64,000 nt of DNA from Candidatus Gottesmanbacteria bacterium. Its GTDB lineage: Bacteria; Patescibacteriota; Microgenomatia; UBA10105; UBA927. The stretch's first letter is position 1. The number at the start of each line of letters is the position of its first letter. Both the position numbers and the translations under genes were made by a program. The notes under the pieces are model-generated. The model did not search any database. It was given only the letters and a program-made list of their open reading frames with translations, and was not told the DNA's origin. The DNA lies in the NCBI GenBank assembly GCA_963711735.1, contig CAVQFA010000005.1, forward strand, positions 199,525 to 263,524, read 5' to 3'. Positions 1 to 64,000 of this stretch are shown here, piece after piece.

Positions 1-9468
<9,468 letters not shown>

Positions 9469-9516: not shown

Positions 9517-10278
9517 ATGGCAGCAAAAACAGTGAACAGAAAACCGGTACGTAAACTGAAACGCTTATTTCTTTTTTTACTTCTTGTTATAACCAGTGCT
9601 GTCGCTGTTGTATTTATTATATTACTTATAAGGAGACAGGAAGATCTTGCGCTGACACCGGCTGAGAAAGTGAAAAAAGAGACAGCTGCAACAATTGCCG
9701 CAATCGGAAAGCTTATGGTGCTTCCGGGCGGTGAAGAGCCGACAATTGCAAGTGTTGCTGATATAACGAAACTGGCAAGTCAACCTTTTTTTACTAATGC
9801 AAAAAACGGAGATAAAGTGCTTATATATAACAAAGCGCGGAAAGCAATTCTTTACAGGCCGGAAACAAATATGATTATAGAAGTTGCTCCCGTGACGATT
9901 GCAACAGGTTCCGGATCAACAACGGCAGGTACACCGGTGCAATCGCCACCGGGAACGAACCTGTCGTATTCTATAGTCCTCTGGAACGGTACTGATGTCA
10001 CAGGGCTCACAAAAAAATATGAACCGGTCCTTACCTCCAAAATTTCCAAAACCACAGTATTGGAGCGTTCAAACGCCAAAAGCATGGAATACGATAAAAG
10101 CATGGTTATTGATTTGACAGGCACACACAAGAGCGACGCGACAAATATAGCAAGCACACTCGGATTTATCACTTCTGAACTTCCTAAAGGGGAGACGAAA
10201 CCATCAAAAGGTGATTTTCTTATCATTCTCGGCCTTGACGCAGTTCCTGCATCACCATCACCTACACCGACGAAGTGA
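9517..10278 (+). CDS. Membrane-anchored hypothetical protein: N-terminal TM helix, extracytoplasmic domain, PASPSPTPTK tail.
   Basis: ORF 9472..10278; ATG at 9517 precedes a basic stretch and the hydrophobic run LFLFLLLVITSAVAVVFIILLI. Confidence 0.5.
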   Translation: MAAKTVNRKPVRKLKRLFLFLLLVITSAVAVVFIILLIRRQEDLALTPAEKVKKETAATIAAIGKLMVLPGGEEPTIASVADITKLASQPFFTNAKNGDKVLIYNKARKAILYRPETNMIIEVAPVTIATGSGSTTAGTPVQSPPGTNLSYSIVLWNGTDVTGLTKKYEPVLTSKISKTTVLERSNAKSMEYDKSMVIDLTGTHKSDATNIASTLGFITSELPKGETKPSKGDFLIILGLDAVPASPSPTPTK

Positions 10279-10312
10279 TACATACCTTCCCGAATGCCTT
10301 CTTTACTCTCAT

Positions 10313-10678
10313 ATGCGTGCTCGGGTACAATACGGTCATATGCTGAACTTTCATGACCACAAACTTTGGCAGGATGCTTTTGTTGTCCTCATGGACATTC
10401 ATGACGTTATAGACGGTCTCGATACGGACAAGCATGAAGAAATTATTGAAGCACTCCTTGAATCCGCGCAAAACGTTGCTTCGAAAATAGCGGATGGATT
10501 ATCCCGCTCAGATCACCGGATCGGCAGGGACCTTATTTATGATTCTGTCGGACTTGTAGCTATCACACGAACCGAACTTGCCGTCGCATGGGGAAGGGGA
10601 ATTGTTGATGATCAGACATTTAAAACAATTGATGACAAGTACGCTCAGTTAACAAACGCATTGCAGTCGTATAAATAA
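10313..10678 (+). CDS. Four-helix-bundle protein resembling the 23S rRNA intervening-sequence protein family.
   Basis: Pattern ...LWQDA...NVASKIADGLSRSD...DSVGL..TEL.VAWGRGIVDDQTF..IDDKYAQLTNALQSY resembles the W-Q-A / NIAEG..R / GS..E motifs of that family. Start chosen at internal ATG 10313 to avoid overlap with the upstream gene. Confidence 0.4.
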   Translation: MRARVQYGHMLNFHDHKLWQDAFVVLMDIHDVIDGLDTDKHEEIIEALLESAQNVASKIADGLSRSDHRIGRDLIYDSVGLVAITRTELAVAWGRGIVDDQTFKTIDDKYAQLTNALQSYK

Positions 10679-11146
10679 GTGAATACAACTGTGAACGTAT
10701 ATATAGGTTCAGACCATCGCGGTTTTCATCTCAAAGAATCTCTCAAAGCATGGCTTTCTCATAGCGGGTATTCAGTTGTCGATTGTGGTAATGCACAATT
10801 TGAACCTACGGATGATTTCCCGGATTATTGTTTCGCGGTTGCTGACAAAGTAATCTCCGATGATACCTCCATGGGAATTGCTATTTGCGGTTCTGGTGGC
10901 GGTGTGACGATTGCAGCCAACAAAGTGACCGGTATACGCTGCGGACAAGCTCTCAATATAGCCGATGTTATACACAACAGAAGACATAACAATATGAATG
11001 TTCTGGCAATCGGATCGGATTTTGTATCAGACGCAGAGGCAAAATCTATGGTTGATGCGTTTTTAAAAACGCCATTTGGCAATGAGGAACGGTTTCTCCG
11101 GCGTCTCGGGAAAATTGCCGCACGTGAATGCACAGCGGACAGATAG
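10679..11146 (+). CDS. rpiB: Ribose-5-phosphate isomerase B (RpiB/LacAB family).
   Basis: IGSDHRGFHLK, ICGSGGGVTIAANKVTGIRCG and HNNMNVLAIGSDFV match RpiB signature segments; GTG start. Confidence 0.8.
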   Translation: MNTTVNVYIGSDHRGFHLKESLKAWLSHSGYSVVDCGNAQFEPTDDFPDYCFAVADKVISDDTSMGIAICGSGGGVTIAANKVTGIRCGQALNIADVIHNRRHNNMNVLAIGSDFVSDAEAKSMVDAFLKTPFGNEERFLRRLGKIAARECTADR

Positions 11147-15753: not shown

Positions 15754-15954
15754 TTATAATTGACCTTTTTGCTGTAATCCCAGAAGCCACATCACGGCTT
15801 CTTTTTTGTATCGTCTGTCACCGCGGGAATTTATACGGATTGCAGGAAGTTTACCCCTTTTTCCCCATCGTTTAATAGTGAGAGGGGAAACGCGCAGAAT
15901 TTTTGCTACTTCACGGACAGTGAGTAAATCGGGCCAATCATCACCGAGAGCCAT
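15754..15954 (-). CDS. Small helix-turn-helix DNA-binding protein (excisionase/MerR-like HTH).
   Basis: 66 aa; LTVREVAKILRVSPLTIKRWGKRGKLPAIR is a classic HTH. Confidence 0.5.
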   Translation of the reverse strand: MALGDDWPDLLTVREVAKILRVSPLTIKRWGKRGKLPAIRINSRGDRRYKKEAVMWLLGLQQKGQL

Positions 15955-16224
15955 ATAATTTTTATGTAACGTGTGTATCTGTTAATATAACATTCGGCGC
16001 ATACTAACAAGATATACCCGTTTGGTTCCTCTAGGCAGGCGAAGCATTACGAAATAATTTTTCCATCCGGTTAGCGGTTTGGAAGGTATCTTTATAAATC
16101 TAACAATATCATCTTAGGTCAAACATTGTCAATAGGGAGGAAGGCAGTTGTGGATAACTTTTGGATGCGGGAATTTATTTTGCGACGTATTTGATTGATA
16201 AAATATTTTACCTGCTCATTATTT

Positions 16225-16266
16225 TGAAAACAAAAATCCCTCAAATACATAAATGTATCGAGGGAT
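16225..16266 (-). terminator. Rho-independent terminator after rplL (hairpin GATCCCTC..ATACAT/ATGTAT..GAGGGATC followed by a U-run on the minus strand).
   Basis: Near-perfect palindrome at 16236-16266 with T-rich tail (plus-strand ttttgaaaacaaaaa) immediately 3' of the rplL stop. Confidence 0.5.
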
Positions 16267-16291
16267 CATTGTATCGTTATGAATAATAATT

Positions 16292-16684
16292 TTATTTCAA
16301 TTCAATTTTTGCGCCTGCTGTTTCAAGCTTTTTCTTTGCTTCCTCGGCAGTTGCTTTGTTTACACCCGCTACGACCTCTTTTGGAGCCGATTCTACCAGC
16401 GCTTTTGCTTCCTGGAGACCAAGTGTCGGGACAAGTTCACGAACCGCTTTAATGACTCCGATTTTATTATCACCGATTGCAGAGAGGATTACATTAAAGA
16501 CAGTCTGTTCTTCCTTCGGTTCACCCCCGTCCGACGGGGCTGGCACTCCGCCTGCGGCAGCGACAGCCACCGGGGCTGCAGATACACCGAATTTCTCTTC
16601 GAGTGCTTTCACGAGGTCTGCAAGCTCAAGTACGGTCATATCTTCAACTGCTTTTAATATATCGTCTTTTGATAGTTTTGCCAT
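16292..16684 (-). CDS. rplL: 50S ribosomal protein L7/L12.
   Basis: [34 protein letters not shown]...[13 protein letters not shown]; Ala/Gly-rich hinge. Confidence 0.95.
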
Positions 16685-16736
16685 ATATTTCACCACCTCT
16701 CTTGTTATCTGTTTCCGCTCATAGCGGAGATCATCG

Positions 16737-17252
16737 TTAATTTGCTTTTTTTGCTTTTATACTGCTCAGTGCCCATACTAATTTATTCAAATTCCAGCTG
16801 AGCGCATAGTGGAATCCCTGAATGGGAGCGTTCAGTTGCCTCACAAGTTTACCGAGAAGCACATCCCTCGTCGGAAGCTGGGAAAGTCTCGTCACGTCCG
16901 CCACAGACAGAAGAGTGCTCCCCATAACTCCTCCTTTAAGCGTTCCCATACCGACTGATTTGAAAAATTTCATGAGAACTTTAACAGGCGCGACTTCGTC
17001 TTCATATGCGTATACTGTCGCGGTTGCGTGTTTAAATGTGTCCCAAAGAGCTTCTTTGGACGGTCCGAGAGCCCGCATGAGAAGTTTGTTTTTTGTAACG
17101 GTGAACTCACCGTTTGCCTTTTTCATTTCACGGCGCAATTCTTCCAGCTGCTTGTGTTTGATGCCTGTATAATCGGCAAAAATCATTGATTTTGCTTTTG
17201 ATGCCTTATCGCTGAGTTTCTGTACCGTATCCGTCTTTTTTTGTGTTGCCAT
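16737..17252 (-). CDS. rplJ: 50S ribosomal protein L10.
   Basis: [45 protein letters not shown]...; sits immediately upstream of rplL. Confidence 0.95.
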
Positions 17253-17327
17253 ATTATATCGTAAACGCAAAAGTAATACGCGTTTGTCCGTTGTCAGGCG
17301 TTCTGTCGCGGTATTACTTCCGGTTAC

Positions 17328-17368
17328 GTCTCCATAAAAAAAGCTCTCTGTTTACCAAGACAAGAGAG
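17328..17368 (-). promoter_or_regulatory. Attenuator-like hairpin plus U-run in the rplJ (L10) leader.
   Basis: Minus strand: GCTCTCT-13nt-AGAGAGC followed by TTTTTTTAT, ~80 nt upstream of the rplJ start. The E. coli rplJL leader contains an attenuator. Confidence 0.4.
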
Positions 17369-17626
17369 CATCATCCTGATGATGTGTTTATTATCATGCG
17401 GATGCTGATTCCCTCGGTAGGTGGATATTTTCTGTTATTGCCCTTTATCGGGCAACCTACTGTCTTTAGGATAGTGTATTTATACCATAGTTACCCTTTC
17501 GGCACAAGGGTGATGTATGAAGTGTTGACAGCTATCTTTTAAGTATTGTACCTTAAATTTATGGAAGGTTTTAATTTTGATATTCATGCAACGCAAAAAT
17601 ATTGCGTGCCTGGGGGTAAATGACGT

Positions 17627-58347: not shown

Positions 58348-59921
<1,574 letters not shown>

Positions 59922-60023: not shown

Positions 60024-60049
60024 TAATCCTCCTTTACGGAGGATTTTTT
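60024..60049 (+). terminator. Rho-independent terminator ~100 nt after the 16S 3' end.
   Basis: AATCCTCC-TTTAC-GGAGGATT followed by TTTTTG. Confidence 0.6.
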
Positions 60050-60243: not shown

Positions 60244-60273
60244 GGCGCGGTGGCGAAGTGGTAACGCGGGTGT
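60244..60273 (+). other. 30-nt partial duplicate of the tRNA-Cys 5' half (acceptor 5' strand + D-arm + anticodon-stem 5' strand).
   Basis: GGCGCGGTGGCGAAGTGGTAACGCGGGTGT vs tRNA-Cys GGCGCAATGGCGAAGTGGAAACGCGGGTGT (3 differences), then diverges. Confidence 0.5.
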
Positions 60274-60348
60274 TAGTCCCAGCACAATCATTCCAAATCT
60301 GAGAAGATTTTGGGAATAGATTTGCGGGATCCCGTATTTGCTAAATTC

Positions 60349-60419
60349 GGCGCAATGGCGAAGTGGAAACGCGGGTGTCTGCAAAACACCTATGCGAGGG
60401 TTCGATTCCCTCCGCGCCT
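60349..60419 (+). tRNA. trnC: tRNA-Cys (anticodon GCA), U73 discriminator; its own 5' acceptor strand pairs poorly with the 3' strand.
   Basis: GGTGT-CTGCAAA-ACACC anticodon arm, GAGGG-TTCGATT-CCCTC T-arm, 3' CCGCGCC-T. 5' GGCGCAA gives only 5/7 acceptor pairs, whereas the upstream partial copy GGCGCGG gives 7/7. Confidence 0.65.
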
Positions 60420-60667
60420 CAACTAAGCAAATACGGGACAAAAACAGCTACCCGCCTCGACTCGCAGAGACAGAGTCGATGCGAGGCGAGTGCAGCGGTT
60501 CGACCTGCCCCGCTGTAGTCCCGAGCTTATCGAAGGATGAAGGAGGGTTCAGGCACACGTAACAATTGTGATAAAATTAACAATCCGAGAGGGTTTACCC
60601 TGTAAATTTCAACGAGTCACGAAGTGACTCGCAAAGAAATATACAAGGTAAATTTTTGAAATTTACA

Positions 60668-60739
60668 GGGTGACTAGTTCATCGGTAGAACGCTTTCCTG
60701 ATAAGAAAGAGGCGCATGGTCCGACTCCATGGTCACCCA
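60668..60739 (+). tRNA. trnI: tRNA-Ile (anticodon GAT).
   Basis: GGGTGAC TA GTTC ATCGGTA GAAC G CTTTC CTGATAA GAAAG AGGCG CATGG TCCGACT CCATG GTCACCC A. Confidence 0.85.
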
Positions 60740-60786
60740 CTGCACAATTTCTTGAGTCACGGAGTTTGGATCGTATAATCGGGCTT

Positions 60787-61065
60787 ATGGATGATCCTAT
60801 ACAATTGAAAACAATAAATATCGGTCAAATTCCTTCGTATGAAATTGGATTGGTATCAGAGGCTGCACATGCTCTTGGTTTTCGTGTAAAAGGTACCTAC
60901 GGAACAGGGACATACTACAATGTTACCCCGACAAACAAGGAAATAACTGTCAGTGGCGGAAATTACGGGATCCTACTATCATATCCCGAAGATAAGGATG
61001 CTGGAAAATTTTGGGATAAATTTTTTGAACTTAAAGGTTCAAAAGGCCAAGTTCTCCTAACGTAG
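60787..61065 (+). CDS. Hypothetical 92-aa protein encoded between tRNA-Ile and its 3' direct repeat.
   Basis: The tracked ORF 60670..61065 begins inside the tRNA; first plausible ATG is 60787. No motif. Confidence 0.3.
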   Translation: MDDPIQLKTINIGQIPSYEIGLVSEAAHALGFRVKGTYGTGTYYNVTPTNKEITVSGGNYGILLSYPEDKDAGKFWDKFFELKGSKGQVLLT

Positions 61066-61183
61066 AAGCGGAATAATAAGTCATCCCTGATATTAATAGC
61101 AACTTTTGACCCCTTTCAATTCTATTTCCTCGATGGTACATTCAGAAGAATATAAAAAATAGTGAAGTTTGGGGCGTTATAAC

Positions 61184-61248
61184 AGTTCATCGGTAGAACG
61201 CTTTCCTGATAAGAAAGAGGCGCATGGTCCGACTCCATGGTCACCCAC
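61184..61248 (+). repeat. 65-nt exact direct repeat of tRNA-Ile positions ~9-76 (3' two-thirds, lacking the 5' acceptor strand); att-site-like.
   Basis: AGTTCATCGGTAGAACGCTTTCCTGATAAGAAAGAGGCGCATGGTCCGACTCCATGGTCACCCAC occurs at 60676-60740 and 61184-61248. Confidence 0.7.
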
Positions 61249-61272
61249 AAAGAGATATTCTACGAGACTTTT

Positions 61273-64000
61273 TTATATATTTTCTTCGCCTTTAAACCAT
61301 TCATAATAAACCGCAGGAATGAAAAGGAGCATAATTGTTGAAGCAATAAGAATTCCTGAAATTATTGCTCCTCCCAGTCCTCTCCATAGAGGATCAGCAA
61401 GAGTAATCGGTAATAGTCCTAGAACCGTACAGAGTTTTGTCAGAATGATGGGTTCAAGTCTGGATGCACCCGCGTCAGCAATAGCTTCTTTAAATCCCAT
61501 GCCCTCTTTTCTGTTGCGATTGATTTTATCAACGATAAACATGGAGTTTGTCACGACGATTCCGAAAAGAGACAGAATTCCGATAAGTGCCGGGAAAGAA
61601 AGCGGTGTTTGTGTAATGGCAAATATTACAAATACGGAGGATACAGCAAGCGGAATTACGAGTAACACGATAAATGCTTGTCGGTAAGACTGGAACTGAA
61701 CTACCATAGTGACCAATATGAGAATAAAGGCAAGAATCATTGCCTGTATTATGGATTGAACACTTTTTTTGTTTTCGTCGTTAATCCCTCCTGTTTTCCA
61801 CCCGTATCCTTCAGGAAGTTTCAGTGAATCTGCGAACGCTTCCAGTTGCTTGTTTATTTCAGTTGCGTTGTATCCGTTTTTAACAGACGCGGATACGGTC
61901 AAAGTCCGTTTGCCTCCTTCCCGTGTTATCGTTGTAGGATTGACCTGCGGGATAAAAGTCCCGAGAGAAACTAAAGGAACATAAGTACCTTGTGATGTAG
62001 GTATGAGTATCGATCCGAGCATTTCCGGGGTTTCTGTAAGTTTTCCGTATGTGAGTACAATATTTTCTTTGTCTTTAGCGCTTTTATCAAATTTGACATC
62101 TGCAAGAGTAAATCCACTTACAAATGTTCTCAGAGTGAGTCCGATCGTATCCATTGATACACCGTTTGCTGCTATTTTTTGCCGATCCGGCAGAAAAACG
62201 ATTTTACTCGTTCCTGGTTTTACACTTTTATCTATATTCGTTACTCCCGGTATTCCGGAAAGGTACGTTTGAATTTTATCCGCATATGTATCCAAAAAAC
62301 CCAAATCGTCACCCGAGAGTTTAATTGCTAAATCGGAGCCTGCCGGCGGCCCGGATGTAATTTCTGTTACGGACACTTTACCAGTTTCATACGTCTTAAA
62401 TGCATTCCGTACGGATTCTGCAATTTGTGAAGAAGGGGTCTTGCGCTTGTTTTTCCCAACAAGGTGGATAGTAGCAAGCGCCGTATTTGGTGTATCCACA
62501 GAACTTCCGAATGTTGACAGGGATGAACCGATATCGATGACTGTAAACAATGATTCGGGAGTCTTTCGTAATTTTTCGATCAGATTCAATCCGTCCGCGG
62601 TAACTGTATTGGTATTTGTACCCGGCGGAAGCTCAAGGGAAACATAGATTCTGTCTCCGTCTGTTTTTGGAAAAAATTCATTTTTGACAAATCCCATGGG
62701 AAGAAGGGCAAATGCCCAGAGAGCGTAGAGAATGATTCCGATGATAACTTTTTTACGTGCCTTGGGTGAATTAAGTATGTTTGTTATGAGCCAATAATAT
62801 TTGGAACTGACGAGTTCCAGATTAATAATTCCGTGATCAAAGTACCCATAAATTGTTTCGAAAACCGATTGAATTCCGTTTGATGACCGCAAAAACGTAA
62901 GTATGCGTTTTTTTATAGTAGGAAAGATTATATATATAACAAAGATAAGCAGGATATAAAGAACGGCGATCATCGGGAAGAGCGGATTTGACCGAAAAAC
63001 GAGTGTGAGTACGCTGAAAGAAAGTACTAGAAGTATAAACCTGAGAAGTACGGAAACCCGGTGTGCAATTGCAGGTTTCAGAAGTATGATGCATACTTGG
63101 CAGTGTAATCAGTACGGCAATTGCAGTGGATGATAGCATGGTTACAGTGACGACGACGGGTATGGGTTTTATAAATTCACCGATGATACCGGTTGAAAGA
63201 AGTAAAGGTACGAAAGACCAAATCGTCGTAATTGTCGTTGACCAGATTGGGACAATAAGGTCACGCCATACGACAAGTCCGGTTTGCGTCGGCGTAAACT
63301 TGCCGGTTCGATAATAGCTCGTCATAGCCTGCACGGTAACGATCGTATCATCAATCAGAAGTCCGAGCGCAATAAGAAACGCGAATAACGAAAGGAAATT
63401 AATAGACATTCCTGTATAACGCATAAAGAAAAAAGCTGAAAGGAACGTAAGTGGAACCGTAAGTGACGAAATAAGTGCCTGTCTCAGTCCCAAAAAAACG
63501 AATAAACATGCCATGACAAGAAGTATGGTGGAACGGAACTCTCCTACAAGTTCATTAAATTGATCTGTTATGTCTTCGGCGGCGTTGACAATTGTATCAA
63601 TTGAATATTCATCACCATACAAATGTATAAGTTTATAAACGATACGTTTCACGTCAGTATCGACTACATCAAAATTCACGTTTGTGTTTTTGTATACGCT
63701 CATAGTGACTGTTCGTTGCGGTTTTGTTTCTCTGTCAGCGTAATACGACGGAAGGATGTTCTCGTTTGAAATTTCCATAATTGTACTGATATCACCGAGT
63801 TTGACGGGAGTTCCGGAGACTGAAATACGGGTATTACGGAGATCTTCGAGTGTTGTTATCGTAGGATCGATTGTCAGTGAAAAGGAATTTATAGAGGTAT
63901 TTACTGATCCGGCTGGGTAGGAAGCAATTGCTGTTTTTACGGCTTGGCTGACCGCAATGGGATTTATGCCGAAATCACGCATTTTTTCAGGGGATAGCGT
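61273..64000 (-). CDS. RND-superfamily (AcrB-like) efflux transporter; start beyond window end, interrupted by an apparent 1-nt frameshift near 63091-63097.
   Basis: Two overlapping minus-strand ORFs (62837..63982 and 61273..62973) in different frames. Hand translation shows ...IAVLITLPS then, after a +1 shift, CIILLKPAIAH... (cf. AcrB LTPALCATMLKP). TM block LGLLIDDTIVTVQ. Confidence 0.7.

Follow-up and report, generated by a model that had tools for sequence, protein, structure and literature searches.

Probable remnant of a decayed integrative element at the tRNA-Ile(GAT) gene of a Microgenomates genome

In the 64,000-nucleotide stretch of contig CAVQFA010000005.1 analysed here (hereafter the window), a tRNA-Ile(GAT) gene is followed by an incomplete second copy of itself, with one small open reading frame (ORF) in between. 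Does such a compact arrangement represent the two ends of an element that entered the tRNA gene, or did it arise in another way? An original prediction, made from the letters of the window alone, had read it as an attL/attR signature of site-specific integration, and had offered as possible origins the remnant of an excised or decayed element, a miniature element or a segmental duplication. We find that the remnant of a decayed element is the best supported of these options. The feature is probably the attL/attR pair of a tyrosine-integrase element that entered tRNA-Ile(GAT) and has since decayed by internal deletion, a reading to which we give a probability of roughly 0.78. The genome belongs to the Microgenomates of the Patescibacteria (Candidate Phyla Radiation, CPR) and is closest to Gottesmanbacteria. 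The parts of the locus, read under this interpretation, are:

60668–60740, + strand: intact tRNA-Ile(GAT) gene (ARAGORN; Rfam RF00005, 57.6 bits), the attL side, made of chromosomal nt 1–8 and the 65-nt block
60676–60740, + strand: copy 1 of the 65-nt att identity block, equal to tRNA nt 9–73 (repeat search, 100% identity)
60741–61103, + strand: left and central insert, containing the orphan ORF
60752–60779, + strand: promoter-like TTGAGT-16-TATAAT, from a consensus scan alone
60787–61065, + strand: ORF of 92 codons, in the first-ATG reading
61104–61183, + strand: conserved element arm (P arm of attP/attR), TTGACCCCTTT..TGGTACATTC..AATAGTGAAGTTTGGGGCGTTATAAC, recognised by homology to element ends
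61184–61248, + strand: copy 2 of the identity block, the attR core, 100% identical to copy 1 and not a gene

The repeat search gave two copies of 65 nt that are 100% identical, in agreement with the exact 3′ direct repeat first described, and whose starts are 508 nt apart. The 64-kb window holds just these two copies at three mismatches or fewer, with 0 expected from 100 shuffles. The spacer between them measures 443 bp (60741–61183), close to the 440 bp initially estimated, and the whole feature 581 bp; at ~38–40%, the G+C content of the insert is the same as that of the surrounding DNA. The first 8 nt of the tRNA (GGGTGACT) are absent from copy 2, where ...GGGGCGTTATAAC stands instead. Copy 2 is not called as a tRNA by ARAGORN. 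Its match to the Rfam tRNA model is truncated to model positions 9–63 and scores 33.5 bits, above the gathering score of 29. Folded together with its own 5′ flank it forms an 'acceptor' of 3 bp at most, with a z-score of −0.11 relative to shuffles; lacking the 5′ strand, it has no means of making the seven-bp acceptor stem and complete cloverleaf of a functional tRNA. Copy 2 cannot form an acceptor stem and is therefore not a gene, as had been claimed; it is a displaced or duplicated 3′ part of tRNA-Ile. The sequence that follows it is AAAGAGATATTC, and that following the complete tRNA is TGCACAATTTC. Excision would join GGGTGACT-AGTTC...CCCAC to AAAGAGATATTC as the empty site, and GCGTTATAAC-AGTTC...CCCAC to TGCACAATTTC as the circle junction.

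For comparison, one genome per GTDB species was scanned with the tRNA D-arm/anticodon-arm sequence, which gave a set of 119 loci. Those with specific lineage names belong to Patescibacteria/CPR Microgenomates (Gottesman-, Levy-, Woese- and Amesbacteria), and many of the 119 records bear other or no lineage labels, e.g. 'uncultured Gammaproteobacteria'. The most informative relative, L121, is found in the complete 1.09-Mb chromosome OY970230.1 of Candidatus Gottesmanbacteria MFD01689.bin.c.3, where an element of 7.3 kb occupies the same gene. In L121, tRNA-Cys and tRNA-Ile (3480–3552) are followed by a PF00589 tyrosine integrase (3658–4665), by about 6 kb more of genes, with a DnaD-like replication initiator at 10001–10753 (HTH_36 and DnaB_2 domains, matching phage DnaD-like/replication-initiator families), and at 10836–10902 by an exact 67-nt repeat of 3488–3554. 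This repeat starts at AGTTCATCGG, the same tRNA nucleotide as in the window, and the scan match in this chromosome (locus L007) was indeed the copy starting at nt 9, not the complete tRNA. The element of L126 has the chromosomal flanks of L121, the same tRNA and an integrase 87% identical to that of L121, with a different cargo (an Mrr-type nuclease and others); its P arm leads into a copy of nt 9–73 at 15880–15944 with the same repeat start AGTTCATCGG. In both elements, 6–7 kb of cargo lies between tRNA-Ile and the partial repeat.

Downstream of the partial copy of L121 comes the chromosomal sequence aattatttattgtataattc...; in L126 this sequence comes after a complete tRNA-Ile, and the two loci diverge exactly at tRNA nt 8/9. 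Together with a flank equal to the attR flank of L121, this tRNA-Ile of L126 gives an unoccupied target for the comparator element. The position of the divergence indicates that the arm and the partial copy are the right end of a mobile element and not a resident chromosomal paralogue. In the intact elements, the tRNA-like core lies between the halves of an inverted repeat, with CGTTATAACAGTT towards P and AACTGTTATAACGG towards P′, which contains the palindrome GTTATAAC; the repeat is perfect in L126 (9795–9815 and 15866–15883) and has two mismatches in L121 (3553–3575 and 10822–10839). All eight close integrase homologues whose contigs were examined (P0011–P0018, 57–100% identity) adjoin tRNA-Ile or its fragments. 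The family is a bona fide tyrosine recombinase with IntI4, HP1 integrase and XerC/D as distant relatives in the PDB, and is <28% identical to any integrase in GenBank phages. Its intact members look like small integrative replicons composed of an integrase and a DnaD-like initiator.

The window keeps one end of such an element. Its positions 61104–61183 are 80% identical to L007/L121 over 82 nt and 74% identical to L039 over 78 nt. A four-way alignment of the window, L121, L126 and L039 shows conserved blocks across the last ~80 nt, ending in GCGTTATAAC, and the junction motif GCGTTATAACAGTT is confined to these loci among all those fetched. The integration signature proposed at the outset is thus supported by L121 and L126, which have an integrase, 6–7 kb of cargo, the same repeat start and a homologous arm of ~80 bp. 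A complete tRNA and a co-oriented fragment of the same gene bound the insert, and the DNA adjoining the fragment is element DNA common to integrase-bearing elements at the same target. Since no integrase lies between the tRNA and the fragment, the locus is filed as a remnant and not as an island. Both copies of the block are intact, mobility genes are absent, and the attR arm alone is recognisable. An arm-type copy in L055 bears the 3′ acceptor strand GCCGCCC of the L039/L121 lineage and not the CTGACCC of L055 itself, a foreign strand that shows copies of this type to be of horizontal origin. As a separate observation, the end of the P arm, GGGCG-TTATAAC-AGTTC, resembles a tRNA 5′ end with nt 6–8 replaced.

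Composite arrangements are seen in some of these loci. Past attR, L126 continues for 1.4 kb (15945–17404; a 195-aa ORF and a VIT1-family gene) up to another complete tRNA-Ile, preceded by ~20 nt similar to those ahead of the first; this segment is missing from L121. L039 has a solitary attP-like arm-core-arm site 1.4 kb after its tRNA-Ile, past cytidylyltransferase-like and LytR-like genes.

Integration into a tRNA gene leaves a regenerated gene and a displaced fragment at the ends of an island (PMC4383910; PMC9897764). By this route, the attP of the element would have carried a copy of tRNA-Ile nt 9–73, and recombination with the chromosomal gene would have produced the complete tRNA at attL, and the P arm of ~80 bp with the 5′-truncated copy at attR. 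An internal deletion would later have removed the P′ arm, the integrase and the cargo. The residue of 443 bp would then consist of the P arm and of the last gene before it, namely the orphan ORF with its promoter-like site, which stands where the initiator stands in L121. We infer from these comparisons the former presence of a full element, its loss through deletion and any residual mobility. The remnant is unable to move by itself; at most, a related integrase acting in trans could excise it or use it as a landing site (accretion).

Several observations weigh against this reading. The main weakness concerns the left end. The P′ arm is well conserved among L121, L126 and L039, where it includes an inverted copy of CGTTATAACAGTT, but window positions 60741–60790 have no significant similarity to it, local alignment with the P′ arms of L121 and L126 being no better than with shuffles. 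The left junction is therefore not a recognisable attL of the L121 family: either the deletion stopped only a few nucleotides short of the tRNA, or the left insert has another origin. No integrase-like ORF was found in the insert or in the 64-kb window, either by tblastn or with a hidden Markov model (HMM) of nine family members at E ≤ 10, and no relative of the orphan ORF was found in any integrase element examined. Attachment-site identity blocks in tRNA genes are usually centred on the anticodon or the T loop (their sublocations are reportedly treated by Williams, 2002); the block of 65–67 bp, which starts from the D arm, is longer, and the crossover presumably took place somewhere inside its 65 nt. 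Finally, the comparators stand at family or order distance, the best 16S matches to the window being ~86–88% identical. The larger variants that the original prediction proposed to look for do exist in the related chromosomes L121 and L126, but neither a fuller element nor an empty site from the window's own species was found in the searched collections. A candidate for a retained integrase-side arm (TTTGGATCGTATAAT compared with TTTGGGTACTATAT) was discarded, as the apparent similarity was no better than that of shuffles.

The rest of the insert is poorly connected to known sequences. Comparison of 60741–61103 by blastn and tblastn with the L121, L126, L127 and L129 elements and their proteins stayed at chance level, and the insert has no DNA match in GenBank phages. 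Searching it, as had been suggested, gave one homologue of the ORF and the arm matches in relatives, while the remainder found no match. The ORF can be read from a GTG within the tRNA (131 codons, 60670–61065) or from its first ATG (92 codons, 60787–61065), and it belongs to no Pfam or PHROG family. A search of 5.8 billion clustered proteins returned the ORF itself only. A single homologue emerged from an exhaustive HMMER search, P0002 (99 aa; E 2e-12), with 49% identity over 76 aa, and three further matches were disregarded as low-complexity or repeat. P0002 lies on a 1-kb contig (L120, 1–1057) from an organism higher in G+C, ~280 nt downstream of adjacent tRNA-Arg(TCG) and tRNA-Lys(CTT) genes, and has a strong promoter-like TTGACA-17-TAAATT 7 nt ahead of its ATG. 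The promoter-like site of the window likewise ends 7 nt before the ATG of the ORF, and a transcript started from it would be leaderless. Because it is conserved at the distance of P0002, the ORF is probably a real gene. The two cases, for n=2 only, hint that a small gene family travels with tRNA-adjacent islands. The AlphaFold model of the ORF is mediocre (pLDDT 66) and of beta-alpha-beta type; Foldseek matches in the PDB were generic ferredoxin-like folds with E>0.01, and no function was given to the ORF.

The compactness of the locus, and an ORF with a promoter-like site of its own, would also suit an intrinsically miniature, non-autonomous element: att ends and a single cargo gene that never had an integrase and was moved in trans by integrases of the L121 family. 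That the sole homologue of the ORF also lies just downstream of tRNA genes speaks in the same direction, as does L011, where an insert of ~370 bp, with an ORF of 79 aa, separates tRNA-Ile from a copy that begins at nt 8. However, a mobile unit of this kind has no second copy in any collection searched, and its ORF is unique save for one 49%-identical protein. The junction between arm and core was not found in viral (IMG/VR, where the tRNA 3′ part is also absent) or Joint Genome Institute (JGI) metagenome contigs. The integrase-side arm required for recombination is not recognisable, and the window has no integrase. We thus consider a miniature element improbable.

Even less probable is that the partial copy and its arm were kept because they are useful, either as a harmless second attB (a 'landing pad' or decoy) sparing the essential tRNA-Ile, or because a tRNA-like RNA is transcribed from them. 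In favour, copy 2 and the resident tRNA are 100% identical in spite of an arm that has diverged by 20% from its relatives, elements that split the host tRNA-Ile exist in related genomes, and accretion at attR is known (PMC5704250). Yet a recent event or gene conversion explains exact identity equally well, the arm has neither a good promoter match nor a stable fold, and the equivalents in L039, L012, L114 and L055 are full of GC-rich hairpin insertions or have their anticodon arm replaced, which points to decay and not to conservation.

A local tandem or segmental duplication by replication slippage or unequal crossing-over, without site-specific recombination, could give a direct repeat whose copies lie this close together, and the lack of an integrase and of any anomaly in composition would suit it, but it should have duplicated the flanks too. 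Instead, the left flanks of the two copies are unrelated, and that of copy 2 has its homologues at the right end of integrase elements in other genomes, with which the repeat boundary at nt 8/9 is also shared. The segmental duplication offered in the original prediction is thus disfavoured, and we rate it marginally below a retained, useful copy. Lastly, a false second copy made by the assembler, for which a partial copy separated from its tRNA by a run of N in L031 gives a precedent, is scarcely credible, as the 65-nt repeat is shorter than usual reads and assembly k-mers, the window locus shows no N's or coverage-type breaks, and the same architecture and boundary recur in independently assembled genomes, one of them a complete chromosome. 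In L031 itself, 102 N stand between tRNA-Ile and a partial copy of 54 nt, probably a product of scaffolding, which calls for caution in automated censuses of fragments.

The genomic setting of the locus is shared with related genomes. A complete 16S rRNA gene (58351–59920, Rfam) lies upstream of the tRNA pair, followed by a terminator-like hairpin (60025–60045), tRNA-Cys (60348–60420) and tRNA-Ile. The order 16S, tRNA-Cys, tRNA-Ile recurs in related Microgenomates loci, and the upstream synteny PAP2-SpoU-PAP2-16S-tRNA-Cys-tRNA-Ile is common to the window and L126. Beyond the feature, on the opposite strand, lies an AcrB-family gene. No genome with this downstream flank was found; L111, the sole locus with an AcrB-like homologue, was rejected as a counterpart, being not syntenic. 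In 16 metagenome contigs that match the T-arm and acceptor sequence of this tRNA, an identical or near-identical gene stands alone, complete and with no partial copy; occupied and scarred tRNA-Ile sites are thus the minority state. In L139/L143, the tRNA-Ile is 100% identical to that of the window. A 14-nt match between their downstream flank and the L121 arm was judged to be chance, the next gene being an ordinary 121-aa ORF and not an integrase.

Other observations were made on this neighbourhood. Neither tRNA-Ala nor 23S follows 16S, tRNA-Cys and tRNA-Ile, so the rRNA genes are unlinked here. The AcrB/RND gene (61276–63982, − strand) is split into two ORFs that overlap in different frames, 62840–63982 covering Pfam positions 194–482 and 61276–62973 covering positions 508–1018, with the N-terminus beyond the edge of the window; this frameshift reflects either a pseudogene or a sequencing error. 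A hairpin motif, AGGGTTTACCCT (GGATTTACCCC in L142), is found 50–80 nt upstream of tRNA-Ile in several genomes (window 60590–60601; L016, L135, L138 and L142) and may have a role in processing or belong to a promoter. More small hairpins (GAGTCACGAAGTGACTC; GTAAATTT..AAATTTAC) come after it in the window.

A profile search with a tRNA-Ile alignment detected partial copies around tRNA-Ile in ~40 of the 119 loci, and the related genomes show the gene to be an unusually busy landing site. The neighbouring tRNA-Cys also bears marks. A 5′ fragment of tRNA-Cys (GGCGCGGTGGCGAAGTGGTAACGCGGGTGT, nt 1–31) lies at window positions 60244–60274, 105 nt upstream of the called gene. The acceptor strand of this fragment, GGCGCGG, pairs perfectly with the 3′ strand CCGCGCC of the tRNA-Cys gene, whose own 5′ strand, GGCGCAA, has two mismatches, so that its fold retains just 5 bp (Rfam 47.5 bits). 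An inverted repeat, CCCGTATTTGCT / AGCAAATACGGG (60331–60342 and 60426–60437), lies around the gene. The site looks like a mirror-image scar, in which an element supplied the 5′ part and left a chimeric tRNA.

More elaborate arrangements occur in related genomes. In at least eight loci (L016, L025, L041, L075, L076, L107 and L108/L119), a complete tRNA-Ile lies inside another tRNA-Ile that is split at the anticodon, with the 5′ half (nt 1–35) 15–60 nt upstream and the 3′ half (nt 36–73) 18–40 nt downstream. In their acceptor strands, the two outer halves fit one another and differ from the inner gene, and the short flanks of the inner gene are mutually complementary (e.g. CCGCGCCTGCC... / ...GGCGGGCAGG). 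L093 has three different 3′ halves in succession, L016 (Gottesmanbacteria) and L073 (Levybacteria) have the same inner tRNA and right-hand flank, and tRNA-Cys is nested likewise in L078 and L098. Full-size elements with a related architecture split the host gene:

L130, 1–270 and 6100–6175: splitting element
L127, 9733–11011: splitting element
L128, 1–1262: splitting element

The elements of L130 and L127/L128 leave the host tRNA-Ile unrepaired, broken in or just after its anticodon arm. Their integrases are 57–61% identical to that of L121. Each brings in a complete tRNA-Ile(GAT) of its own, in which the anticodon stem is changed (CCTAC/GTAGG or CTTCT/AGAAG), located 36–39 nt further on from the split and followed by the integrase; the host 3′ fragment of L130, which starts from nt 26, is found at the opposite end of the contig. 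Full-size splitting elements are the likely origin of the nested tRNAs. A tRNA intron of the bulge-helix-bulge (BHB) type or a split-tRNA system was considered less likely than element decay for the nested genes, the integrase elements of L130 and L127 sharing their left-hand architecture.

Of the 119 loci, 16 contain a small GIY-YIG nuclease ORF (~80 aa). In most of these its end coincides with the first base of tRNA-Ile or tRNA-Cys or falls within ~50 nt of it. It stands beside tRNA-Ile in L061, L116, L095, L006, L055, L111, L071, L068, L044, L074, L114 and L104 (in L104 it abuts an outer 5′ half) and beside tRNA-Cys in L031, L047 and L080. In L061, L111, L068 and L074, a 5′ fragment of the same tRNA precedes it, often with hairpin insertions. 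This ORF looks like a homing-type cassette that restores the 5′ part of the tRNA.

Many displaced fragments contain GC-rich hairpins (TCCCGCC...GGCGGGA; CTGCCCGCC...GGCGGGCAG; CTGCCCGC...GCAGGCGGG; TCACGC..GCGTGA), in genomes of ~40% G+C. They were seen in L039 (7346–7430), L012 (146–220 nt after tRNA-Ile), L114, L055, L041, L111 and L144, and in the window at ~60447–60530, where the interval between tRNA-Cys and tRNA-Ile holds GC-rich hairpins including the T-loop-like GCAGCGGTTCGACC..CCGCTG. Hairpins replace exactly the 17-nt anticodon arm in L039, L055 and L114, and the insertion point in the T loop is the same in L039 and L012. A conserved tRNA-like RNA with a GC hairpin for an anticodon arm was considered for L039, L055 and L114; it was rejected as the main reading because the copies are at element ends, the disrupted part varies, and the hairpin motif also occurs in unrelated places (rRNA). 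In the literature that could be searched, we found no description of the nested or replacement tRNA, GIY-YIG and hairpin arrangements, although this does not prove that they are new.

We tentatively propose, as a possibility somewhat short of an even bet, that the tRNA-Ile and tRNA-Cys scars of the window are traces of a process running through the Microgenomates clade, in which selfish elements serially invade both genes and replacement copies supplant the resident tRNAs. With its altered anticodon stem, the replacement tRNA would no longer be open to attack by the same integrase, and the element would be hard to lose. Once decayed, elements of this kind would leave tRNA-inside-split-tRNA genes, with up to three nested layers as in L093, and the resident tRNA genes of these ~1-Mb genomes would be repeatedly replaced by element-borne copies. 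If true, this would be an unusual route by which an element becomes indispensable, as well as a source of tRNA gene turnover.

Taken alone, the feature is modest: an ordinary genomic scar of a kind already known, in a little-studied phylum. Annotations should leave copy 2 out of the tRNA genes and trim the ORF call from 131 to 92 codons. More broadly, the locus draws attention to small integrative replicons that form a family and have tRNA-Ile(GAT) as their target in Gottesmanbacteria and other Microgenomates, a group in which, to our knowledge, very few mobile elements or attachment sites have been defined. It also shows the 16S-proximal pair tRNA-Cys/tRNA-Ile to be a hotspot of repeated invasion and decay in these reduced genomes.

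Among known systems, the closest likeness is to the L121 and L126 elements themselves, with which the window shares the target gene, the repeat start AGTTCATCGG, the ~80-bp arm ending in GCGTTATAAC and the upstream context; it differs from them in having no integrase, no P′ arm with inverted CGTTATAACAGTT and no 6–7 kb cargo, and an unrelated 92-aa ORF instead. We know of no conjugation genes in this element family. Like the tRNA-gene islands of Islander (PMC4383910), the locus has a complete tRNA and a co-oriented 3′ fragment bounding foreign DNA, and related loci have a PF00589 integrase beside the regenerated tRNA. A 3′ fragment is the common case, found in 3760 of 3919 islands (PMC4383910). 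The window differs from these islands in its CPR host, in the absence of an integrase between the repeats, in having only 443 bp inside, and in its longer block (65–67 bp). Partial tRNA genes of the attR type are known to be mis-listed as genes by tRNA finders (PMC9897764); copy 2 likewise passes the Rfam score (33.5 vs 29 bits), but differs in that ARAGORN makes no call on it and that the spacer is of hundreds, not thousands, of bp. Decayed elements that have no integrase and keep attL and attR are known as cis-mobilizable elements (CIMEs; PMC5704250). Those of streptococci, derived from integrative and conjugative or integrative and mobilizable elements (ICE/IME), resemble the window in being integrase-less remnants between direct repeats of a tRNA-gene att site (PMC5704250). 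CIMEs keep both att sites without integration and transfer genes, whereas the left arm of the window is unrecognisable and its attL may be incomplete. The likeness extends to tandem or composite structures in L126 (a second tRNA-Ile 1.4 kb past attR) and L039 (arm-core-arm); with these, by analogy, a CIME-like mobility of the window remnant in trans would be compatible. Nothing in the feature departs from the known mechanism of integration.

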